The notes beneath the pieces were generated by a model. It saw only the letters and a program-made list of their open reading frames with translations, made no database searches and was not told the DNA's origin. A stretch of DNA of 61,333 bases, counting the filler, from Bipalium vagum (lineage: Eukaryota): NCBI GenBank assembly GCA_037834085.1. It is 3 parts of 3 records of this genome, joined end to end, with 100 filler letters (N's around TTAATTAATTAA, not from the genome) between each part and the next. Parts side by side here need not be neighbours in the genome. Positions count along the whole stretch, not along the records: positions 45,077 to 61,333 come from JBBMKC010120170.1; 2 more parts are not named here. One strand, written 5' to 3'. Shown here piece by piece: positions 6,201 to 61,333 of the stretch. Position numbers and translations under genes: made by a program. Positions within the stretch are counted from its first letter, which is position 1; the number at the start of each line of letters is the position of its first letter.

Positions 6201-6374
6201 CTCAGAATTACAATGGCCTAAGACATTTAATGTTTAATAATAATTATAATTATGATGATTATTTTAATATCAAAAGGAAAATAATGTGTTGGATGAAGAA
6301 AAAACAAATTAAAAACAGATGGAAAAATCAATGAGAAGAATCCTGAACCTTTAGAATGCCTTTGATAGCCAAAA

Positions 6375-7514
6375 ATTATCCTCTGGAATAGGTGCTCCAA
6401 AATTTCGCTGGATAAATCAAATATTCGAGCAATTATTTATTACGAATGGAAAAATACCAAAAGCACAAATGAAACTGTCTCAAAACTTAACGAGGTGCTT
6501 GGTGAAGGATCAATGCAACTGCGAACAGTGCAAAATTGGTTCAAAAAATTCAATAGTAGTGATTTTTCATTGGAAGACAAAGAGAGGTCTGGAAGTCCAA
6601 AAGATTTTGAGGATTATCAAATTATAGACCTTCTTGAACAAGACAGATCAATTAGTGCTATTTTTCTGAGTTAAATATAAGCGATATAGCCACAAGAAAC
6701 CGACTAAGAGCATTAGGATTCACTTGTAAACTCGAAAAATGGATTACCCGCCAACTAGCTAAGAAAAACAAGTTGAATCGCATTGAAATTTGTTCAAGAC
6801 TTCTCGAAAGAAACCGAAATGATCCTTTTCTCGATCGGATAATCACTTGCGATGAAAAGTGGATCTATCATGACAACATAACCAGACGAAGATCGTGGTC
6901 GTTGAAAGGAGAGCCTCCGCAAAAATTAAAAAACGAACCTTACACGAAATAAGGTTCTTTTATACATTTGATGGGATTCTCGTGGAATTATTTTTCAGGA
7001 GTTTCTCAAATCCGGGGAAACCATTAATTCTGATGTATATTGCGACATGCTAAGAAGAGTTCATGCCATTATGAAGGAAAACCGGAGCAGTTTGATAAAC
7101 CGAAAACAAGTAATTTTCCACCAAGATAATGCAAAGCCTCACAAATCAATGAAGATATTGAAGGTTATTCAGGAATTGAACTGGGCTCTAATGGAACATC
7201 CGTCATATAGTCCCAATATCGCTCCATCCGATTTTTTGTTCCGGGTATTACAGAATCATTTGATAGGTAAAAATTTTAAGAGTTCCGGAGGTATAAAGAA
7301 TGAAGTTCTTTCTTTCTTTCATTCAAAAGATCGAGATTTCTTTAATACTGGGATCAACAAACTTCTAAATAGATAGGAGGCAGTAATAGAAAAAGATAGG
7401 GAATATCTGGATGATAAATTGTTTAATAATGTCTTATGATTAATGAATTAAATTTAACTTCAGTCTTAGTTTAGTTTTTAATTAAAAAACGAAAAAACTT
7501 AGTTCGTTACCTGA
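6375..7514 (+). mobile_element. mariner element, 5'-truncated; same family as 40592-41877
   Basis: NWFKKFNSSDF, RIITCDEKW, FHQDNAKPH and HPSYSPNIAPSD motifs. 3' TIR cttagttcgttacctga followed by TA. Confidence 0.92.
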
Positions 7515-24999: not shown

Positions 25000-25620
25000 T
25001 TAGAAATATTCTGAAACAGACGTGTGTTCTGGCAAGAAATATTGCTGATATTACATAGGATTAAATTAAGTGCCTAACTGGTTTCCATTTCTGCTACTGA
25101 GTTTTGTATGTATTGATGGTGAACAAACTGGCAATGTTGTCAAAGTTTATATAATGGTGTAGGAAATTATTTTTTACCGTTATTACTGCAAGCAAGGCAT
25201 GCAACCAAATTCTAATTTTGTTTGATTATTTACTAATAATCAAAGAGAATGAAAAAATGAACTAACAATAAGAAGAGCAGAAAAGTTGGGATCAGAAAAA
25301 TAAATGCTTCTTCTATTTATTGTTGATTCAATATGTTCTAACTGGAATTTCATTGAAGTAGTGCCACTTTAACAAAAATCATTTTTCATTGATATTTCTC
25401 AATTAAAAATTGATCTCCATACATATTTGGTTGGTTTTATAGGAATAAATTTTTCTGAAAGTCACTAACCATTTATCTCAATTGTTTATTTGCTTTCAAT
25501 CGTGGAATTATTGCGGAAAACGTTTCTGAATAATGGCTTGCAGCTGTATCAGGGCTAATGGTAACTTTGTTTTTATTTAATGAATGATTCTGGAAAATTA
25601 CATGAACCTTTTTTGATATT
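25000..25620 (-). mobile_element. Heavily decayed pogo/Tigger-like remnant
   Basis: YGDQFL (cf. DQIFNxDE) and VACLACSNNGKK (cf. LACSADGxKLP). Confidence 0.3.
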
Positions 25621-33277: not shown

Positions 33278-33410
33278 GAAAGATAAGTCGCATAAGTGTG
33301 GACATCACTAAAAAGGATAATGAAACATTAGGATTAACAGTTTCTGGAGGAGCTGATCGAGGAGAAACTCCTGTTATTGCAAATATCAGACCTGGTTCCA
33401 TAGCCGAAAG
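33278..33410 (+). CDS. GRIP: GRIP (glutamate receptor-interacting protein) exon, PDZ1 N-half
   Basis: [43 protein letters not shown](R) vs GRIP1 [34 protein letters not shown]; ttacag / gtatt splice sites. Confidence 0.9.
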
Positions 33411-37605: not shown

Positions 37606-37751
37606 AAGCGATATTTTTTTAATTGGTGATCATATTATTTCTATTAATGGAATTTCAACATCATCCCTCTGTCACCAGGAGATTGTTAGCCTAGTGAAGT
37701 CGTCCAAGCCAAAGATATCTTTAATAATTGACTATGAGTTACCTGAGAAAA
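37606..37751 (+). CDS. GRIP: GRIP exon, PDZ1 C-half
   Basis: SDIFLIGDHIISINGISTSSLCHQEIVSLVKSSKPKISLIIDYELPEK vs GRIP1 SDQLDVGDYIKAVNGI..HDEIISLLK..LEVEYELP; phases 2 in, 1 out fit both neighbours. Confidence 0.9.
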
Positions 37752-38828: not shown

Positions 38829-40553
38829 CAGTGCTCCAACTAATTATTGCCGCACCTTGAAAATATAATAAATCTTAACTAATTTAAATTTAAATAAATT
38901 TTTTTGATTATTGTATTATGCATGACATATTTGTAAGATTTTAAAATAACTTTTGGCTAAATAATCAACTATTTACTTAACATAAAACTGATTTGTTATA
39001 ATATATCAAATAATTAATTCCAACTAATTATTGCCGCACTAATTTAAAAGTGAAATTATTTAAATATAATTATATAAATTAAACGTTTGTAGATTAAATA
39101 TTAAAAATAAGTACTTCTGAATACTAAAATTTTATAAAAAAATTATTTAGTAAGATGAGTAAAATTGCAAGATTAATCAACACCGAGAATGGAATGATCT
39201 ATGCCTACCATGACGCCGGGAAATCGAACAGATGGATCGGCAGTAAGTTAGGGAAGAATGAAAGTAGTATAAGATACTTTTTGAAGAATAAAAATAAAGA
39301 AAAGAAGAGACGGGGTCCTAAGGCGAAGATTTCCGCAGCAACAAAGGGTTCAATTATTAGGAATGCCAGCAACCAAAGCATATCCTGTGCGAAAATATAA
39401 ATGATATTCAACCTAAATATGTCCGTAGAGAGTATTACATAAATCTGGGACGATCCGATATAAGATGTTGGTAAACCACCTTTGAAGCCACAACATAAAA
39501 TCAATCGTGTCTGCTGGGCTAAAGAGAAAATATCGTGGGTCACCGAATGGGAAAAGGTCATCTGTAGTGACGAGAAGAAGTTTAATTTGGATGGACCTGG
39601 TGGTTACACATATTATTGGCTCGATTTGGGGAAGGAGGAGATATCTTTTTCGAATAGACACACTGGAGGAGGTTCCTTGTTGATTTGGGGTTGTTTCAAT
39701 TACCACGAGAGGTCGACTCTCGCGATTATTACCGGCAGGCTAAATCAATTTGATTATCAAATTCTTTTAGGAAAACATTTACTTTCCTTTATGAATAATT
39801 TAAGCGGAGACAAACCAATTTTCCAACAGGATAATTGTCAATGCCATGTTGTACGCTCCACTTCTTAATAGCTACAAGACAAAAATATCCATGTTATGTC
39901 TTGGCTGCCCTATTTACCAGACCTGAATCCCATAGATAATCTTTGGAGGATACTAACACTTCGGGTATATGCTAATGGGAAAAAATATGAATCAATTTCA
40001 GAGCTGTAAAGAGAGGTAATTTGCTGTTGGGAAGAAATCGATAACACCGTCCTGCGAGCACTGGTAAATTCTATGCCAAATAGAATTTATGAATTGATTT
40101 ATTCCCATGGAAGTTCAACTAAATATTAAAAATCGAAAAATAATTCAAAATGTATTTTTTTTGTTATGATATACGTCTTTTGTAAATATGCGGCAATAAA
40201 ATATTGGTATTTTTTAGTTAATTTTTCATTTTTTTAAAATTTTTTTCATTATATTTTTTTTGTATATATATTTACAACAACGCCGACAACAATGAAGACA
40301 GCTCCCCATTAGACAATTGTGATGAAGATCTATTATGAGCTATTGATTTTAGGAATAACTATCTGTGATACTTAACCATATTCAGTGATATTATCTTGTA
40401 TAAAGATCTTAATTGTATTTATCTAGCTAGTAAATTTGTTTTTGAAATAAAATTTTGTATATATTACTTATATATAAATATTAATAACTTTGTAGCTTCT
40501 ACAAACAAAAAATATGAATTTTCTTAATGCGGCAATAATTAGTTGGAGCACTG
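38829..40553 (+). mobile_element. Full-length Tc3-like (Tc1 family) transposon with IR/DR ends; disrupted transposase 39155-40129
   Basis: 26-bp TIR cagtgctccaactaattattgccgca at both ends with TA TSD. Inner repeats at 39019 and 40189. Motifs CSDEKKFNLDGPGG, FQQDNCQCH, PDLNPIDNLW; stops and frameshift. Confidence 0.95.
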
Positions 40554-40591: not shown

Positions 40592-41877
40592 TCAGGTAAC
40601 GAATTAATTTTTATCGTTTTTTAATTAAAAACTAAACTAAGACTGAAGTTAAATTTAATTTATTAATCATAAAATATTATTAAAAAAATTAATCATCCAG
40701 ATATTTCCCATCTTTTTCCATTACTGCCTCCCATCTAGTTAGAAGTTTCTTGATCCCAATATTAAAGAAATCTGGATTTTTTGAATGAAAGAAAGAAAGT
40801 ACTTCGTTCTTTATACCTTCGGAACTCTTACAATTTTTAACCATCGAGTGATTCTGTAATATCCGGAACAAATAAAAATCGTATGGGGCGATATCAGGAC
40901 TATATGGTGGATGTTCCATTAGAGTCCAGTTCAATTCCTAAATAACCTTCAATGTCTTCATTGATTTGTGAGGCTTCGCATTATTTTGGTGAAAATCACT
41001 TGTTTTCGGTTTATCAAACTGCACCGGTTTTCCTTCATAATGGAATGAACTCTTCTTAGCATGTCGCAATAGACATCAGAATTAATGGTTTCCCCGGATT
41101 TGAGAAACTTCTGATAAATAATTCCACAAGAATCCCACCAAATGCATAAAAACTTTGTTTCGTGTAAAGTTTCGTTTTTCAATTTTTTGTGGAGGCTCTA
41201 TTTTCAACGACCACGATTTTCGTCTGGTTATGTTGTCATGATAGATCCACTTTTCATCGCAAGTGACTATCCGGTCGAAAAAACGGTCATTTCAGTTTTT
41301 TTCGAGAAGTGTTTAAAAATTTTCAATGCGATCGAACTTGTTTTTTCAGCTAGTTTGTGGGGAACCCATTTGTCCAGTTTAAAAGTGAATTCTACGCTTG
41401 CAGTCGGTTTCTTATGACCATATCGCTTATATTTAACTCAGAAGTGGCTTGCTTTGCACTAATTGATCTATTTTGTTCAAGAAAGTCCATAATGTGGTAA
41501 TCCTCCAAGTCTTTTGGCCTTCCAGATCTCTCTTTGTCTTCAATGAAAAATCGCCACTATTGAATTTTTTGAACAAATTTTGCACTGTTCCTTCACTAAG
41601 CACCTCGTTAAGTTTTGAGACAACTTCATTTGTGCTTGTATTATTTTTCCATTCGTAATAAATAATTTCTCGAATTTAGGATTTGTCCAGCGAACTTTTG
41701 GAGCACCTATTCCACAGGATAATGGTTGATAACATTAATTATACAGTAAATCTGAAACTCACTTGTTTAAGCAGCAAACTAAAACAAAAAAAATTTAAAT
41801 CAGTAGATAAATGAGAATCACGGGGGATAACAAATTTAAACTACTGATAAAACGAAAAACCTTAGTTCGTTACCTGA
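40592..41877 (-). mobile_element. Full-length (1286 bp) mariner element, inactive
   Basis: TIRs tcaggtaacgaa.. / ..ttcgttacctga with TA TSD; WVPHKL, IVTCDEKW, HPPYSPDIAPYDF; frameshifts. Confidence 0.95.
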
Positions 41878-41966: not shown

Positions 41967-42135
41967 CTGAAGTACAAAAAGATATAAAAGTTAAACAAGC
42001 GTCAATTACTTTACCTAAGCCTATTGATAATGATGAAGGATTTGGATTTGTGGCAAGAGGAGGATATTGTAAAGATCCATCAAAGATGAGACCCTTGACC
42101 ATTATGCATGTAAGACCAGGATCAGTTTCCGAAAG
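41967..42135 (+). CDS. GRIP: GRIP exon, PDZ2 N-half
   Basis: (T)EVQKDIKVKQASITLPKPIDNDEGFGFVARGGYCKDPSKMRPLTIMHVRPGSVSE(R) vs GRIP1 [40 protein letters not shown]; atttag / gtaaat. Further GRIP exons are not seen before the join. Confidence 0.9.
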
Positions 42136-42837: not shown

Positions 42838-43854
42838 TTAGGTGTGTGAATAAGTAACCGAAATCAGACAAAAACTTTCACCGTTTTAAAATGCTTGATA
42901 TTATATAAATAATACATATGTTATTTGAAAATATCAGTATTTATCTATCAAATTTAAATGTAAGAATGATTTGTTTAAATATTCTTCTTTAGTTAATCTA
43001 GGATGCAAAATTTTGCAAATTGGAGAAAAAGTAGCATTTGCGGAAAGTTTTGTTAGGGTACTTAATCTCCAAGAAGATTGTTACTGAGAGTCACCGTTTA
43101 TTAGAGGGATCAAATGGGAAAGATGCTTTGTAGAAAAACAATGTTTTGAATGGTTTCATCGGTTTAAAAATGATGATTTCAACATCAAGGACGATGATCG
43201 ATTTGGCCGCCCGATGGAGTTTGAAGATGAAGAATTGAAGTCTTTGTTCAGCCAAGATTCATGTCAAACGCAAGACTAAATGTCAATATCATTGTAAGTC
43301 GATCGTTCTACCATGGCCAAACGTTTACAAGCAATGGGTATGATTCAGAAACTAGCAAGACGGGTTCCATACGAATTTGGACGAAACGTCGTTTGCGTAT
43401 CTGTGGATCGCATTGTAACGGGCGATGAAAAATGGATATACTACAGTAATCATAAGCGAAAAAGATCATGGGAAGAGCCCGGCCATACTTCTACATCAAC
43501 AGCCAAGCGAAACATTCAAGGTCAAAGGTCATGCTATCCATTTGGTGGGATCAGTTAGGTATACTTTATTATGAGTTATTGCTACCAATTGAAACATTCA
43601 AAGCAGATCGCTATCAACTTCAATTGATGCATTTAAGCCAAGCAATAAAGGACAAACGCCAATATTATTCCAAATCGCATGATAAAATTATTTTGTTAAA
43701 TTACAATGCTTGGTCGCATGTTTCGAAACTAGTTACTAAATATATAGAAATCCTTGGATAGGGAATCTTACCTCACCCGTCGTACTCCCCAGATATTGCT
43801 CCTTCGGATTACCACCTGTGACTAAAAAAACGGTTATAATATTCACACACCTAA
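42838..43854 (+). mobile_element. Mos1-like (mauritiana) mariner with internal deletions
   Basis: TIRs ttaggtgtgtgaata / tattcacacacctaa with TA TSD; KRLQAMGMIQK, RIVTGDEKWIYYSN, KVMLSIWWDQLG, PHPSYSPDIAPSDYHL. Confidence 0.92.
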
Positions 43855-44230: not shown

Positions 44231-44976
44231 TTAGGTTGTCTAATAAATTCGTGCCGTTTTTTTCGATGTCGTTTTCAATGACATTAGATGCATCTATTAT
44301 TAATTTAATTTAATATTTAAATAGACAAATCAAGTGTTTGTTATTTATTAATAGTTGTTTTAACTCATTAGTTTTTAATTTAGTTTTACATGAAATTCAA
44401 AATGGATATCCAATTCAATTCAAAATCGGACACGTTCTTCTATACCAGTTTAATTGCCATGTTAATGCAACCCAAGCTGCCCGAAACATAAATACCGTGT
44501 ATGGAGAAGGTACCATGTGTTGTCGGGCAGCACAAAAATGGTTTTCTAAATTTAAGAAAGGCGATTTTAGCCTTAACGATGCTCCTCAATTCGGACGTCC
44601 ATCTCATTTCAGTGAAGAGTGTCTCAGCTCTCTTCTAAAAGCTGACAATCGCCAAACTATTTAATGGGAATTGCTGAAAAGAAATGTTAACGGCCGCAAT
44701 TTATGTGCAACAATTAAAACGTGTAGCCCTAGCTATTAAACAAAACAGACTAAATTCAAAGCATAAGTTGATTTTGCAGCATGACAACGCCCGACCGCAT
44801 GTTGCCAACATGACGATATCGGCCATTCAGGAATTTAATTGGGAGGTATTACAGCATCCCCATATTCACCAGACATCGCGCCTTCTGATTTTTACCTGCT
44901 TCGAGCAATAGCAAACGATCTCCGTGGTGTGACATTCGATAGTGATGAAGACGTCCGGATTTGGCTCGAAGAGTGG
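44231..44976 (+). mobile_element. mariner element, internally deleted, cut by the join
   Basis: TA + ttaggttgtctaataa TIR; AARNINTVYG, KWFSKFKKGDF, LQHDNARPH, YSPDIAPSDFYL. Confidence 0.9.
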
Positions 44977-45076
44977 NNNNNNNNNNNNNNNNNNNNNNNN
45001 NNNNNNNNNNNNNNNNNNNNTTAATTAATTAANNNNNNNNNNNNNNNNNNNNNNNNNNNNNNNNNNNNNNNNNNNN
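44977..45076. other. Artificial contig spacer N44-TTAATTAATTAA-N44
   Basis: Same 100-bp six-frame-stop linker as 21469-21568. Confidence 0.97.
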
Positions 45077-46723: not shown

Positions 46724-46912
46724 AAATTACAAAAGGAACAATTTAATCGAAGACAACGGCAAGATAGGTGGAAAAAGGATGCTTTAGAAGACAGGGATAT
46801 GGATTTTAAGAAGGACAGTGTTGATAAGCCTTCTCGTCCCAATTTAGACCGTTCAATTTCCTTAGAGTTGAAGCCTGCTGATGTGAGATATGATGATCTT
46901 TTTATGGAGGAG
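46724..46912 (+). CDS. Internal exon of an unidentified gene (KLQKEQFNRRQRQDRWKK...RPNLDRSISLELKPADVRYDDLFMEE)
   Basis: tttgtccag acceptor, gag|gtaagt donor, 189 nt open, coding-like composition. Confidence 0.75.
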
Positions 46913-47251: not shown

Positions 47252-47332
47252 ATGATCACCTTTAAACCGCAAATATTTTCTAATGAGGATGAAACGGAAA
47301 ATAATTCCAATATTGATGAAACCACCAATTGA
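47252..47332 (+). CDS. Terminal exon of the same gene (MITFKPQIFSNEDETENNSNIDETTN*)
   Basis: tttttccag acceptor after a 43-nt intron; TGA at 47330-47332; aataaa ~20 nt downstream. Confidence 0.6.
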   Translation: MITFKPQIFSNEDETENNSNIDETTN

Positions 47333-47989
47333 GTTACGAAAAAAGAAATTTTAATAAAATATGTTTCTATTTTAATTTTTTACTTTAACTAACTATTTTA
47401 TTCAGTAACTTTTCATTTTAAAAGCCAAAGTTAACAAATATCATTATTAATATTTATAGTCTAGTTATATATTAATACTTTAAGTGCTAATCCGACTCGT
47501 TTTATTTTAAATGGTTAGGCTAAATATTAATCCTGTGTGCAAATCAAATTTAAATAAGGAATAAGAAATATCTGTAGAAAGAAAATAAATTTTTTAATCA
47601 AAACTTAATTACTGATATACAATTGGTCAACAAGATGCTGGATAAATACTTAATTATTGATGTCAAAGTCCCATTTGAATTTGAGGTCTCTGTCAGAGTT
47701 AATGACGAACCAAACAATTATAAGTATCAGATTATACTGGACGAACACAAACTAAATTGGAAGAAAATATCAGAAAATTTATAATCGGATTCTGATAATC
47801 GTGTACCCCGTTAAAATATCAAACACTCAGAGTATTATGATTTAAAAAACAGTAATCTATATAAATATATAAAAATTTAGGTCGTCATCATCACCCATAA
47901 TATTATGAAAAAAAGTTGTAACCAGAGCCGATACAATCACCTAAAATTTCCCATGTCAATGACGACCTATCCTTGATTTGAAAATAATA

Positions 47990-53492: not shown

Positions 53493-53629
53493 ATGTTGTT
53501 TATAAATATTTTGCGAAAAATGCTAACTGTTTTAATAATTTTGATTAACTTTTTTCAAAGTTATAACCTGTTGGGAAGAAAATCCCACGATATAATAATA
53601 GGAATTCATTTCGGAGAAAAGTATATGAG
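53493..53629 (+). CDS. HSP70: Divergent BiP-like Hsp70, exon 1 (signal peptide + degenerate phosphate-1 loop)
   Basis: MLFINILRKMLTVLIILINFFQSYNLLGRKSHDIIIGIHFGEKYM(R). GIHFGEK occupies the GIDLGTT position. Donor ag|gtaact (phase 2) joins in frame to 57691. Alternative start ATG at 53520. Confidence 0.8.
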
Positions 53630-55607
53630 GTAACTATATTTATTTACTATTGAAATCTGTTCAATATTGTTTTTCGATAACAAAAAAGAAAAATGATGTT
53701 CATAAAAATATTCCATTAATCCTTAGCATAATTCTACTTATTTCTCATTAGTTTTAATTAATAATTTTCCAGCTTATATCGCCTTATGAAAATCTTTCTT
53801 CATAATAACTTATTTATTAATAATTATAATGGGATTAAATCTGAAAAAGGAAAACAAATTTTTGAATCTAAAAATACAATTTGATTTAATCTAAGTCTAA
53901 TAACGTTCATTGCAAAGACTGGCCTTCGAGTCTTCCCATGTAATGTGACGATTATCGTTAATATTTAACGCTCGTCTCTCGGGAAGCCGGAAATTAAATT
54001 TTAATATTTTATCCATATCGAAGCTGTAAAATCCGAAAGAAAAGTCTGAGAAAAAAGATTAATAATTTTTCTTAGTCCTTTCAATGACATTTTACAATTT
54101 TGTTTTTATTGATTAATTTGATCAATTGTTCGATGTTACAATTATTCGATAAAAGTGAAATGTGAGGTGTACCTTAAAGGGATCAATGTATTCCAACAAA
54201 TTGTATTGTGGTTAAACATGTTCGAATATAAATATTGATTAAAAATAAAATCTCAGGATCAACAAAATTTATATATATTATTGATTATTTAAATTTATAT
54301 CTTCAAAATAGGCTCCACTTTTAGGATTTACCTATTCCAACGAATAAATCGATTGTTGAATAATTTAATGTTTCCATCTTTTAAAGTGTGCACTTATTGT
54401 ATTGTAAATAATAAAAGTAACCACTGGTTCCATTCACTGGTAATACCGTAATAAAGTTTTCAGTCTAAGTGATTAAAATTTTTGAAAATCTTAAGTTTCC
54501 TGAACGATAAATACTGGGCTTAAACGGTAAAAGAAGTCAATCAAGCTTTTCTTATTTTTTTTGTTCCCCCTATAAGGATCGATATATTGAGTAGATTCAG
54601 CACATAGTGGAATGCTAATTTAAGATAAATAAATTTAATTTTGAAAATAAGTTATCCTTTACTTTTCTTTTATGTATTAGGTTGTTTAGAAATGAATTTC
54701 GGTTTTATAAATCTATTTTTTTAACGTTAGTGTACCATAATTTTGTGTTGTTTTAATATATTTTATATATCATTTTAAAGCGTGAAATTTAAATTATATT
54801 TAATAATAATTAAAATAATTTATGTTTATGATAAAAGACTTGCGTATTAGATAACAAATTTGAAGTATTATAAGACTTCTATAATATTGGTTGTCGACTC
54901 ATTGAGAAATACAATATAAACTGCCCAATAATTAAAAGAATACTAAAAATGTAACTTGTGAGTTTTCTTCTCTCAGGAGTTTGAGGACTATTGATTTTCA
55001 TATTTGTTGATAGTTTTTTGGTCATACTTTATTGTGAGATTATTGGAAGTTACAAGGTATATGATTAAATTTTGAGTGATTAATAAAATTTGTTGTTTTA
55101 AGTAATGTTACTGAAGGGATTTTTTGGATCACAACAAAACAAAGTTAGTAAATAGTGAGATTAGTACTTTAACACAGGGTTACAATATTTTGTTACATTA
55201 AAATATATGCTATTAAATTCAATTTTTTAGCCTTTTATTCTTTTGAAAGAGTAATTTCTGCATTTATTATTGAATAGATAGTTTTAAATATAAAGAAATT
55301 TCATACACTGCAAAATTTAATGAAAGGTATACATATTTTATTCGTTATAGTTTTACTATACAATTATTTCCTCTTAATATATATAAAATCTAATTATAAA
55401 TACTTAGTACAACTGTTGTCAGCACAATTAAATTTTATTAAACTATTATAAAAATGGGAAAATGTTTATTTTCCGATGAAGAGAAATTTAATTCATAACT
55501 GGTTTAATTCTTATTGACACAACCTAAAGTCTGAAAAATAAATTTAGATGGCTGGGAACTTTGGTGGTTCTATAAGGACCCGGACCTATGAATAATCTGA
55601 ATGAATC

Positions 55608-56634
55608 TGTTACGCAATTTTTTACTATGACCACTGTCGTAAGACTTAGCTCACAAAGCTTACTGATCCTTTCACTTTTGTCAGTACGTGTACGCAAAAG
55701 AATGAATCAAACAACTACGAGCAACACTATTGCTAAAATAACAATAACAAAATATTTCAAATAATCAATAAAATGCCTGCAATCAATCACACTGAAAATC
55801 AACGTCAAGAATAATAATCAATTAAATTAAAATCAAATAATTAAATACCAATATCAATTAAATGTCAGTAAAATTAAATATCAATTAATTTAAAAAGAAA
55901 AAGCACAAAATCAAGATAATCTCACCACTTTTGACGACAGGTCCAAATGGTTGTTTGCTGAACCAAACCCGGTTCGCTCAGAAACCACCAAACAGCATAG
56001 GACCAGCTATGAGCTCCTATCGCATAATATAATATAATATAATAATAATATAATATAATATAATAATAATATAATATAATATAATAATAATAATAATATA
56101 ATATAATAATAAGAATTTACAATTTGAAAATCTTCGGATAATTGCAACAAATTGTGGGTCTTTTGACAAAATAAAACCAAATCTTTTTGATTACTCTTCT
56201 GACAACCAAAAATAATAATTCTCGATCTTTCTTCTCACAACAAAATAATAATAATTCCCGATCTCTCTTCTGTGACAATCCACTGCGGATTCCAACTCCT
56301 TATATACCATTTTGATCAGACGACTAATCAGTCGTAGATCCGCTTGATTAATGGGGAATGTCGATTCCCTTTTTAAATCGATAATTCTAAATCGGTCCCT
56401 CCTTGCGGACCCTGGTCTAATCTTGGCAATTTAGGTTCGCCATTGTCAAGATTAGATCATTTTTGGAAATAATTAATTGCCATTTTTGTTTGAATGTACT
56501 TTTTAATTATTATTTTATTTCTGACCCTTTCGCTTTCTTAATAACTAATTGATGATAACCAATCTAAACCCTATTGCGGTCTCTAACATGCTTTTACAAG
56601 GGTTTACACGGATGTGTCCTTGGCTAACCCAACA
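55608..56634 (-). mobile_element. Solo LTR (1027 bp) in the Hsp70 intron
   Basis: TGTT..AACA ends flanked by 4-bp duplication aatc (55604-55607, 56635-56638). TATA-like ggtatataagg on the minus strand at 56298-56308. Internal (AAT/ATAAT)n at ~56025-56112. Confidence 0.7.
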
Positions 56635-57690
56635 AATCTGAATATCTTCCTTCAACTCTTCAATCAAATTTGGCAGCAATTAAAGAAGGAATTAAGAAAA
56701 TTATGATACTCTTCCGAGTGGGTTGTTGCCTTCTTGGCTGCGTTTCAACTGGTCTTGTAATTTAAGTTTATTCGAAATACATCAGCAGGTCACTACGTGG
56801 TTCGTTTCTAACATCATTGATTATAACTTAGTCCAGGGCATGTAATTTCAATTTTAGTTTCATATAAATTTACCCTTTGTATTTTGTCTTCAATCCTACA
56901 CTTTCTATTTCTCTAATCAAATTCTGAGAAAGATGAAAGTAGCATCTCTTTAAAATTGTTTATACTTGACATAGATATTTGATTTTAAATTTAATTTAAA
57001 AGTTTGTCTTTTTATGGACGATATAAAGGATATTAAAACAACGGCATTACTATTATTAAAAAACGAACTTACAATTTGAAAACACTAATATCAATAAACT
57101 ATCACTAAGTGAAATCTTGAAATTCGTTTATCTCAAATTACTGAAATCATTACAAAAATAGAATTTTGCATAAGGTTCAAACTTGTAAGATTTCATCTAA
57201 GCAAACCTGAGACTATATAAATAATTTCAATCTAAATTTAGTATTTTAATATTTTTTAAAATGTTTTTGAAAAAATTAATTTCAGAGATTTAAAATTTCT
57301 TATTATAACTTAGATTAAATATTCTTTAATTTTATTACTTTTTATTAACAGTACATACATTTACTGAATTGAAAATATTCTATTAAACTTAAAATGTAGA
57401 TTGTTTTTCAGCTTAATATAAAAATGTATGAAAATACAATCTGATAAGACTAAAATATTATTTGAGAATTACAGAAAAATGACGTTGATGAAATAAGAAT
57501 AAAATAATTTTATATTTAATTATTAATTAAACACAAAAATTTAATTAAAAGCTTTGCTTGTTTTTTTATCTAATACACATTAATGAAAATTGCTAATATT
57601 TTCTCAAGAATTTTTTCAGGAATAAATCGCATTTGAATAATTTTTAAAGGCTTTTATTTAATTTATGAAGTTAAAAAATCACTGTTTTAG

Positions 57691-59467
57691 ACTGTCGATA
57701 ATCAAAAGCGGATACTTAAGTATCATTCCAAATACTTTGGGTGATCTGAAAACCCCGATAGTTGTAAAATTCAAGAAAGATGGACGTGCTCTTGTTGGAA
57801 GAGAGGCAAAATATTCTCGAGAGGGATCAACGATTATTGATAATTTGCATAAAATAGCGGGGAAAACATTTGAGGAAATAATAATAATGAAGGAATATCC
57901 TTTTCAGTTTGAAATTTTCGGAAAATATAACAAACCACACATCCGGGTCACCTTGGAAAACAAAACCTTTTCACAAACCATAGAAGACATTTTATCAAAT
58001 GTCTTTAAGTATGCAAAAATTAGTGCTGAGAGTCATCTACAAGTTAATGTTAGTACAGCTGTTATGACATTTCCGGACCATTTCTCATACTCTCAGATAC
58101 TGTCTATTAAAGCAGCAGCAAATATTGGAGGTCTGTCTATAATTAAACATGTCACAGATTCAATGGCAGCAATATATGCCTATGAATTCAATGAGCAAGA
58201 TGAGGAAATGAATGTCTTGGTCTTAGATATTAATGAGGAAACTTTTAATTTGGTTGTCATTGGTTGTGACAATCATGGACAAGAAGTTATAGGATGGAGA
58301 TCCATTATACAATTAGGAGAAATGCACATGAGAAAACCTTTGGAAAGCTATTTAGTTTCAATGTATGAAATAAAGAGAGGATATATTTTGAGAAATATTC
58401 ATATTGTTAACAATATTAAAAGAATAGTCAAACATGCCATACACGAACTCAGCACGCAGAACTCATTTGAATTTTCTTGGGGTCTTATGGAGAGTAATTC
58501 TACGGATACTGAAGTGGTAAACATATCGAAATTTAATGAGTTGATTTTGGGGACTGTGGACGAGTTGCTGAGTACAATGACAACTTTTTTAAAAGAACTG
58601 AATCTTAAGCGATCAGATATTTCCAAAATTATTCTTTTAGGATCAAGTTTTACAATGAGAAAGCTGCTCTTAGAAATTCAGAATTATTTCTATGGAAATG
58701 AATTAACATTTGATAAAGGTTTACTTGAGACTCCAATAATAGGAATAGCAAAAATTGCATATTTATCAAAAGAAAGGAATGAACCCCTGAATGTTGTGTT
58801 ACCGGATCTTTTACCTATGAATTTGGGAGTCGAAGTTTTCAATGGAATATTTGATGTAATAATTGATAGAGGAACTGTAATACCCGTTAAGAAATCGAAG
58901 TTGTATACAATTACATTCAATAAGCAAAGTAAAGTGAGATTAAATTTTTTTGAGGGCGAAAAGACAATGACAAGATATAATGTTTATTTGGGAACAATCA
59001 CATTTAGAAGACCGGATGAAGGATTAAGAAGTATGATTTTATTTAATGTCCAAGTTAACATAAGGGTAAATGGTGAAATTTTCATCACTGTTGAAGATCT
59101 GTCAACAAATATAGTGAAAAGCTTAAAGATTTTGATAGATTGGAGAGAGGCCAGGGAGAACTACAACAGTCAGAACATACCCATGTCTGAAGAGAAATTA
59201 GAAAAAGACCGTCAAAATAACGAGTTTCAGGAATTGAAAAGAGATATCGAAAGTATTGCTTTTGAAATAAAAGCTCACGTGGAAATGAAAACTAATATTA
59301 TTGAAAAGATACAGTCCCCAATTGATTTAAAGATTTTGAAGGAATCTGCAAATGAAGTAATTCAGTGGTTTGAAAATCATTCGGTAAAAGATATGGATGA
59401 GTTAAGAAAATTGCAAAGTAGATTTCACAAAAATGTTAAACCAATTTTGTCCAATGCCCTTTTATAG
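57691..59467 (+). CDS. HSP70: Divergent BiP-like Hsp70, exon 2 (NBD + SBD + lid); ~637 aa in total
   Basis: Long ORF collinear with Hsp70: AVMTFP, DLLPMNLGVE, IDRGTVIPVKKS, FFEGEKTMT..N..LG, NG.I.ITVEDLST, VIQWFENH, VKPILS. Acceptor tgttttag at 57690, so the ATG at 57665 is probably intronic. Confidence 0.9.
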
Positions 59468-61333
59468 TTTAGACCTTTTTTGGTTTTATTGTTTAAATGT
59501 TTTTTATAATCTTTAAAAATTTATCTTTCACAGTTTCTATGAAAAGGTCTAGATATCCATGGTTTTCCAAATGAACTAAATGGTACTGAATATGCTGGGT
59601 ACGTGGATGTTGTATTTCTAGTGTCGAGTTGACTCAGATACACTCTTATTCTTTAGACCACTGTACATGATTGTTAATGACGTATTTTAATCTCTTTTTC
59701 ACTCCTCACCAAATCCGCAAATATAAAGTTAAAGATTTTTTTATTAATTTTTACTTTGCATGTAAAAATTGCATTCTTCATATTCATATTCTTCATTTTC
59801 AAAATGAAATACGTTTTTTCACAAAAAGCATCACAAGGTGATCAACCTTCTCAAAAAATCATTTAAAAGTTACATGTGGTATAGATAAAAATTCCTTAGA
59901 TTCGTAAAGAAAAAAAATAAAAACAAGTCCATGAAATAATCTGGATTAAACAATTAATGTATGAATACGAATCCTATTGAATCTGTTTTAAATAACGACC
60001 TTTAATGACATTTTTACACATAGTTTTTTAAAAAATTTATAAACCACTCCGTTTTTGCAGCATTTTTCTTTTTTTGATTAGAAGGACATTATTTGTCAGA
60101 TACATAAGTATGTGGAAAGAAGGCTTCATTCTCGATTACTATTTATAATTTGATCAGAGTTGTCATCTCTCATGATTTTTGATGAAGAAAAAAGTGAAGG
60201 ACCAAAAAGTGAAATTGGCGAGAAATTCAAAAAATTTTTGTAAAAGAAGAAAGATGAATAGTCAAAAATGAGATGCGTACTAGAGATAATTTAAGCAAGC
60301 CGACTGTACATAGTTTGATAGAGAAAATTGAAATCGGAAAAGTGAACAGTCGATTCATCCTATGTTTTTTGACAGCCTAAAATCGAGAAAATTGATTGCA
60401 AGTGTGCAAAGAAAATTTTGTTCATTATTTTTGGAAGAATATTGTACTATAATGAATGGGATATCATTGAGTCTTTATGTGCCAAATAACAACCATGAAT
60501 CTTGTAAATGGGATTTTCCTCAGAAAAGTCACCAAAAATGTTTCGAATCAGAGTGAACACCGCTAATAGTGATAGAGGTCATTTAGAAGAGAAAATATCC
60601 TTTTGTGTGCTTTACAATTTTAATAAAAAAAATTAGAACAAAATTGATTACGTCTTTCACATCATATTTGCACAATAATAATAAGAAGAAGAATAAGAAT
60701 AATTGCATCTCCTTCTTCTTCAAATCTAAATTAACTAAAGGAGACTGATTTTTAAAAAATTTCATTCACGGTTAGTTAAAGAAATTAAATAAAAAAATTT
60801 AATTAATAAGAATTTCAAATTGATATTTAATTGATCAATAAATTACATAGGGAAGAAAACAATAAAAATAAGTTAATAATTGCAGAGTAAAAAATGTGAA
60901 ATTAGAAAATCAATATTATTTGTGTAATTTATTGACATTATACAAATAAAAATTTTAGTTTTCTCCTGAAAATTTCACTTTTTTTTACAAAGTTACATTA
61001 ATTAAATCGATATTAAAAGAAACTTTTTAAAAAAATAACAAAATTGGAGACATTTTAATATTGTTCTTTTGTACAAACAAATAGCATTTTTATATAAACA
61101 AGAACAAAATAAACATAAGTCTATTCAATATCTATTTTATCCTCAAGAATATCCTCAATACATAACTTTATAATGTAGAATAAAGGTTCTTAAATATTAT
61201 AAGTGATATCAAGATATAGATAAAATTTCAGTTTAGCTATGCCTATTAAAATTTTAAAAATCAATTTTTAATCAATAAAAATTTATTTTATAACATTTAT
61301 CTTAAAATGGATACTGACAATTTATTTCAAGAA

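Follow-up and report, generated by a model that had tools for sequence, protein, structure and literature searches.

A candidate BiP-derived pseudo-ATPase in Bipalium vagum with a leader and no retrieval signal

Hsp70-related chaperones that depart from the BiP pattern

Several proteins with the Hsp70 fold, including Ssz1 and the Hsp110/Grp170 group, do not run a normal ATPase cycle. These proteins retain nucleotide binding, and their binding domains are altered or they carry long insertions; the hallmark of Hsp110/Grp170 is a long acidic insertion together with a C-terminal extension. Hsp70 and BiP found outside cells are usually put down to leakage of the normal chaperones, and how such proteins would function there in the absence of ATP is an open question. 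In tapeworms, the additional Hsp70 copies are reportedly of the cytosolic type.

ER and exported chaperones without a KDEL-type end are described in the available portions of several reports. HSPA13 (STCH), an ER Hsp70 with neither KDEL nor a substrate-binding domain, is secreted under stress (PMC9691929). In Trichomonas vaginalis, the Grp94 TV910 is an ER chaperone paralogue that no longer carries a retrieval signal and leaves the cell along the ER-Golgi route (PMC5973626). Hsp70-x of Plasmodium falciparum is exported through the secretory pathway; it is a classical Hsp70 that ends in EEVN and partners exported J-proteins (PMC6681276). In plants, the terminal motif is absent from truncated BiPs (BipT), and HDEL-less BiPs occur in 40% of the species surveyed (PMC10687569). 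Hsp70 families are expanded in tapeworms (PMC5327563), and the planarian Schmidtea has three bip genes, in an account whose available part makes no mention of KDEL (PMC8344900).

ER chaperones without KDEL are thus already known. The combination at issue here is BiP origin with the leader, binding domain and lid kept and both KDEL and the ATP site lost: our search of openly accessible papers, supplements aside, returned no BiP-derived, KDEL-less, ATP-dead animal paralogue, and one may sit unnamed in Hsp70 family tables. Here we describe a gene that would show this combination. If the reading below is true, a BiP copy that has kept its binding domain and lid without KDEL and ATP site would serve as a natural experiment on what an extracellular Hsp70 does when it has no cycle. 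Its value at present is that of a clear and cheap hypothesis from one orphan gene, not of a functional finding.

Gene model and descent from BiP

The window, by which we mean the whole 61,333-nucleotide stretch of DNA analysed, contains one long ORF, 57662-59467. The first-pass annotation had proposed that an exon about 4 kb upstream, outside the ORF track, supplies the leader of the protein. This is borne out when all 903 upstream + strand GT donors that are in phase 2 and have 12 or more open codons are compared, each being fused to the beginning of exon 2 and scored on a profile of 49 Hsp70s from which the protein itself was left out. The donor of exon 1 ranks top, with a gain of 14.5 bits against a mean of 0.4 (sd 1.0); an overlapping donor of the same exon reaches 6.5 and the next non-overlapping one 5.8. 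It is the phosphate-1 strand and loop, absent from the long ORF, that account for the gain.

Coding exon 1 (53493..53629, + strand, 137 nt) encodes the leader and a degenerate phosphate-1 loop. From the ATG at 53493, its frame reads MLFINILRKMLTVLIILINFFQSYNLLGRKSHDIIIGIHFGEKYM and runs open to the donor GAG/GTAACT at 53629/53630, which is the top of 10 GT sites in 53493-53720 and matches 7 of 9 consensus positions; a second in-frame ATG lies at 53520. The intron (53630..57690, +, 4061 nt, GT..AG) is of phase 2 and sits at the BiP first-intron position. It contains an AAT microsatellite near 56020-56110, and its repeats are unremarkable. The acceptor of exon 2, TTTTAG/A at 57690/57691, requires phase 2, which exon 1 provides. 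Coding exon 2 (57691..59467, +) carries the rest of the nucleotide-binding domain, the linker, the substrate-binding beta domain and the lid, up to a TAG stop, and a candidate polyadenylation signal, the first AATAAA 3' of the stop, matches at 59916..59921 (+). Joined at the DNA level, the two exons give 637 codons with a single, terminal stop. The two-exon model, with its junction 53629/57691 predicted from DNA, is real and well supported. A 3650-nt contig of sequencing run X1 shows zero differences over 57200-60000, and because it spans the intron end and the 3' flank as well as exon 2, it is DNA, perhaps the source of the window itself, and gives no independent support. An origin as a retrocopy was considered and is not needed, as at least 2 of 24 near-complete BiP loci (L007 and L031) likewise carry only the first intron.

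The surroundings are AT-rich (20-34% GC per 2 kb). Just upstream, on the + strand, lie small exons of a PDZ-domain gene, with approximate edges at 33280-33410, 37606-37751, 41967-42135, 46724-46912 and 47252-47333; one matches Pfam PDZ at E 6.4e-5, and the gene, which we take to resemble GRIP, seems to end after about two PDZ domains. A coding-exon-like stretch of another gene lies at about 25280-25570. There are many broken transposase fragments (2333-2929, 6369-7376, 39128-39868, 40689-41675, 43298-43761 and 44314-44960), presumably mariner/Tc1-like by their motifs. The gaps at 21469-21568 and 44977-45076, each of 44 N, TTAATTAATTAA and 44 N, are assembly spacer and not biology.

Exon 2 matches Pfam HSP70 (PF00012) at E 7.5e-61 (206.5 bits versus a cut-off of 20.6; profile positions 14-595 of 599), and cluster searches led from exon 2 to Hsp70 clusters and from exon 1 to nothing usable. 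The top PDB sequence match to exon 2 is BiP, almost free of gaps, at E 9e-62 versus 1.2e-49 for HSPA1A. Among 1.84 billion representatives, the top match is P0005 (27% identity), which belongs to a cluster named BiP, and the best 150 matches are 21-29% identical. As for close relatives, 7994 candidates yielded only two matches, both at 24%; 1641 short candidates and the metagenome and viral contigs yielded none. A structural model predicted from a 50-row alignment, on which it leans, has all Hsp70 elements at pLDDT 82.6, with a single-sequence prediction reaching only 37.9. The model resembles BiP and Hsc70 structures: its top Foldseek match is BiP (PDB 6asy and 5e84 are among the BiP structures), and in VIA it aligns to the GRP78 ATPase domain at Z 31.9 and rmsd 2.9 over 358 residues.

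The position of the intron is the strongest evidence for the proposed BiP descent. The codon at the exon 1/exon 2 junction aligns with the Cys that follows GIDLGTTYS in BiP. We scanned metagenome contigs for a GIDLGTTYS-type motif with a phase-2 donor, a pattern equally open to BiP and cytosolic Hsc70 genes, and obtained 95 loci, 77 of them distinct. All but one of the latter (76/77) begin with a leader of 27-60 residues that starts with Met, 72 have a leader with hydrophobicity of at least 2.3, and the short cytosolic N-terminus occurs in 0/77. RITP, which we take as the BiP-type motif in agreement with our PDB and protein-family comparisons, is found in 53 of the distinct loci versus none for RTTP, and xDEL ends in 17 versus none for EEVD. 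Because the intron position is in this sense BiP-specific, the leader, exon 1 and intron are probably the BiP first exon, inherited. The leader would then be ancestral to BiP, and the gene therefore a BiP copy minus its tail rather than an Hsp70 with newly gained export.

The two trees differ on the placement. In a careful 16-row tree, the protein falls inside the BiP clade at 97/98, on a very long branch; in a quick 39-row tree, it pairs with another long branch and not with BiP, which was flagged as a possible artefact. The BiP rows L035 and L065 are partial in both trees. We conclude that the gene is most likely a fast-evolved copy of BiP (HSPA5).

Exon 1 also encodes what the first-pass annotation had called a basic-then-hydrophobic leader, and the description holds. 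If the ATG at 53493 is used, Arg-Lys precedes the hydrophobic core of the predicted signal peptide, MLTVLIILINFF (53520..53555, +). The 9-residue Kyte-Doolittle maximum of the leader, 3.37, is the highest anywhere in the protein and at or above that of 66 of 76 BiP leaders. From the first ATG the leader has 36 residues and from the second 27 (the BiP median is 37), and its length, charge and hydrophobicity all lie inside the range of the 76 BiP leaders, its export function being a prediction. It would be cleaved, presumably after Gly28, which is our guess by the -3/-1 rule. By itself, such a hydrophobic leader is weak evidence, because 8 of the 163 ATG-started open frames in this AT-rich window (~5%) reach its hydrophobicity score. 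After the core there is one acidic residue, versus 2-9 in the BiP leaders, and the acidic N-terminal segment typical of BiP is gone. No transmembrane segment apart from the leader is predicted in the 637-aa protein, which has a predicted pI of 7.0, one Cys and five N-glycosylation sequons, up to all of which might be glycosylated in the secretory pathway.

That frequency of chance leaders is one reason to consider a cytosolic protein, with a non-working leader, a downstream start or an origin from cytosolic Hsc70. Diagnostic residues do not help here (over 35 columns, 8 are BiP-like versus 6 cytosolic-like, p 0.79), and in VIA the best-scoring rows are Hsc70, with BiP within 1 Z of them. The intron position, the leader length and the 16-row tree all favour BiP, however, and a start at the next Met (44) would delete the first strand of the nucleotide-binding domain. 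The protein has neither the short N-terminus nor the C-terminal EEVD of cytosolic Hsp70/Hsc70. We regard cytosolic residence as the least probable of the explanations discussed here.

Nucleotide site, substrate-binding domain and lid

By sequence, the canonical features of an Hsp70 ATPase (the phosphate-1, phosphate-2 and adenosine motifs and the catalytic Lys) are not intact. We used a working list of 24 nucleotide-site residues, and of pocket residues, based on Hsc70/BiP structures in general and not computed from any one of them. In the alignment to P0005, whose numbers minus one give those of human BiP, six of the 24 are kept: Y40, D225, T230, S301, G364 and S366. The changes include D35>H, T38>E, T39>K, K97>H and E202>D; G227-G229>N-E-E, D232>N, G256>E, E294>K and K297>I; and G365>S, R368>T and D392>L, all in P0005 numbering. 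In the same alignment, the phosphate-1 loop (53601..53629, +) reads GIHFGEKYM in place of GIDLGTTYS, and the phosphate-2 loop (58217..58255, +) reads LVLDINEETF in place of LVFDLGGGTF. The loss is not evenly spread: 5 of 21 well-conserved columns are kept in the site versus 43 of 76 elsewhere in the nucleotide-binding domain (Fisher p 0.013). Nor is it unique, because one of seven other divergent family members, the leaderless P0043, is equally degenerate with 6 residues kept; the other six keep 16-24 of 24.

Two positions can be compared with BiP mutants. In the available portion of the report, G227D decreases nucleotide affinity and stops ATP from driving peptide release, and T37G prevents the conformational change (PMC2171714). 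The protein here has Glu at both positions (human BiP numbering), and its catalytic K is H. It is predicted neither to bind nor to hydrolyse ATP. The first-pass annotation had suggested extracellular proteostasis; because the nucleotide site is largely destroyed, with 6/24 residues kept, an ordinary ATP-driven role of this kind is unlikely. The dead ATP site is, in our judgement, a more telling feature than the idea of secretion.

The binding domain and lid are kept. The substrate-binding beta domain (58808..59137, +) aligns with BiP without gaps (35/111 identical), and its pocket is still hydrophobic: V462 and V500 are kept, I427 is V and I464 is L, and three residues are bulkier, V430>F, F452>Y and I498>F (P0005 numbering), which might close the pocket. 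The helical lid (59138..59467, +) is likewise complete (22/107 identical) and stops with its last helix.

Such divergence could also mark a relaxed, functionless or unexpressed BiP duplicate in decay. The branch is extreme, at 6 to 9 changes per column in both trees; 43 of 70 near-invariant family columns are kept versus 51-70 in 49 other proteins; and UPR or heat-shock elements had no match within 1.5 kb upstream of the gene. Yet the 637 codons contain no stop or frameshift and are almost gap-free against BiP, the splice sites are canonical and lie where the ancestral ones do, and the losses are concentrated in the nucleotide site. Neutral decay is disfavoured because drift to 27% identity would break the frame, and 1000 shuffles of the letters of the 591-codon open frame each contain at least 33 stops. 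We consider decay improbable; judged by its reading frame, the gene is intact and not a dead gene.

C-terminus, fate and comparison with known systems

The protein ends VKPILSNALL, then TAG. The first-pass annotation had noted the absence of KDEL/HDEL and EEVD, and we find the same; there is no KKxx end either. The stop coincides with the end of the final helix of the lid, and the acidic KDEL tail of BiP, some 17 residues long, has no counterpart. Of the 22 BiP loci that reach the last helix, 20 continue in frame into an acidic xxEL tail, and the remaining two leave their contigs. In the 1.87 kb between the stop and the end of the window, no xxEL-type end occurs in any frame; looser look-alike ends such as KKxx occur in four segments. 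By descent, the protein is placed in the Hsp70 family and the BiP lineage, and it lacks two features of a working BiP, the ATPase site and the retrieval signal. One BiP-type gene among the loci, L047 (match 1495-1528, +), is more diverged, with 58% in the last exon, and has a REEL end with a short Asn/Ser tail; L044 also looks diverged and is incomplete.

The true C-terminus might differ, if read-through or a recent nonsense change exposes a tail that would allow surface display or if a retrieval exon lies beyond the window. After the TAG, the frame at 59468-59509 (+) reads FRPFLVLLFKCFL and then a stop, giving a hydrophobic peptide of 13 residues after Ser-Asn-Ala that resembles a GPI signal. 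Tails of this kind turn up in 92 of the window's 9290 stop-to-stop segments, and shuffling the local 3' sequence produced one in 151 of 5000 trials, a chance rate of 1-3%. It was, however, spotted post hoc in a T-rich flank (60% T), its spacer is non-polar, and the tail contains Lys. Potential splice donors close to the stop are weak, with 2-3 of 9 consensus matches, and in no BiP locus checked is the tail on a separate exon. The stop context is, we assume, not of the leaky type. A different C-terminus thus has a small probability, and surface display in particular, like the links to mucus and host interaction raised in the first-pass annotation, is unsupported by this analysis.

Proteins with a leader and without xxEL are known elsewhere, namely P0109 (a Tetrahymena protein annotated as an ER-luminal Hsp70), P0029 (Bolivina) and P0137; because these show both features, leader-plus, tail-minus Hsp70s recur in other eukaryotes.

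A simple chain of events would connect these features. The inherited leader would carry the protein into the ER, and without a retrieval signal it would move onward by bulk flow along the normal secretory route. If it cannot bind ATP, it would be unable to open and release its client and would be stuck in the high-affinity closed state, like BiP G227D. It might then hold one client stoichiometrically (1:1) through hydrophobic peptide segments, either serving a secreted product as its escort or holdase or forming a structural part of a secretion. The extracellular space has little ATP and neither ERdj proteins nor an exchange factor, which would explain why the ATP site has decayed faster than the rest of its domain.

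Secretion is the most likely fate suggested by the sequence. That the protein is a pseudo-ATPase descended from BiP which probably leaves the cell and binds its clients without ATP is a claim to which we give about an even chance. A more specific version is offered tentatively, and we would not lean on it: that a BiP duplicate became a dedicated extracellular ATP-independent holdase or secretion component, a full-length Hsp70 locked in its gripping state after motor and retrieval tag were lost together, possibly anchored at the surface via stop read-through.

The missing KDEL need not force export, because HSPA13, also KDEL-less, acts mainly at the translocon, at Sec61, according to the available text (PMC9691929). 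The protein could accordingly be a pseudo-chaperone with a dead ATP site that resides in the ER or secretory pathway, kept inside through BiP, a client or a membrane partner, where it would escort clients or regulate BiP and its co-chaperones, perhaps in one cell type (gland, germ cells). Consistent with this, the protein retains the linker Asp, the proline switch and a residue equivalent to BiP T518, and its J-domain Arg is substituted only by Lys. In addition, 40% of surveyed plant species have HDEL-less BiP copies, for which the available part of the report shows no function (PMC10687569). However, both acidic ends typical of BiP are gone, and there is no transmembrane segment besides the leader and no KKxx end to hold the protein back. 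We therefore think residence in the secretory pathway rather unlikely, although it is the main alternative to secretion.

Read as a probably secreted BiP copy, the protein shares some feature with each of the systems described above, and the match is exact with none; the statements on TV910, Hsp70-x, the plant proteins and HSPA13 follow the available portions of the reports. Like TV910, it is a genome-encoded paralogue of an ER chaperone without a retrieval signal; TV910, however, is of the Hsp90 family, with functional ATPases reported and no canonical signal peptide (PMC5973626). Hsp70-x, in contrast to the protein here, is not described as BiP-derived or ATP-dead (PMC6681276). The plant BipT proteins are, like it, Hsp70 paralogues without the terminal motif. 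HSPA13 is similarly KDEL-less but has no substrate-binding domain, whereas here the full domain and lid are present. Ssz1 (structure 6sr6, row 49 of the Foldseek matches to the model) and Hsp110/Grp170 differ from the protein in that it is collinear with BiP over its 637 aa, without the long insertion and C-terminal extension of Hsp110/Grp170. The closest system is BiP (GRP78, HSPA5) itself, which shares a leader exon closed by the same phase-2 intron, collinear domains and the top sequence and Foldseek matches, and from which the Bipalium protein differs in its 27% identity, its 6/24 nucleotide-site residues, its lack of both the acidic N-terminal segment and KDEL, and its five sequons.
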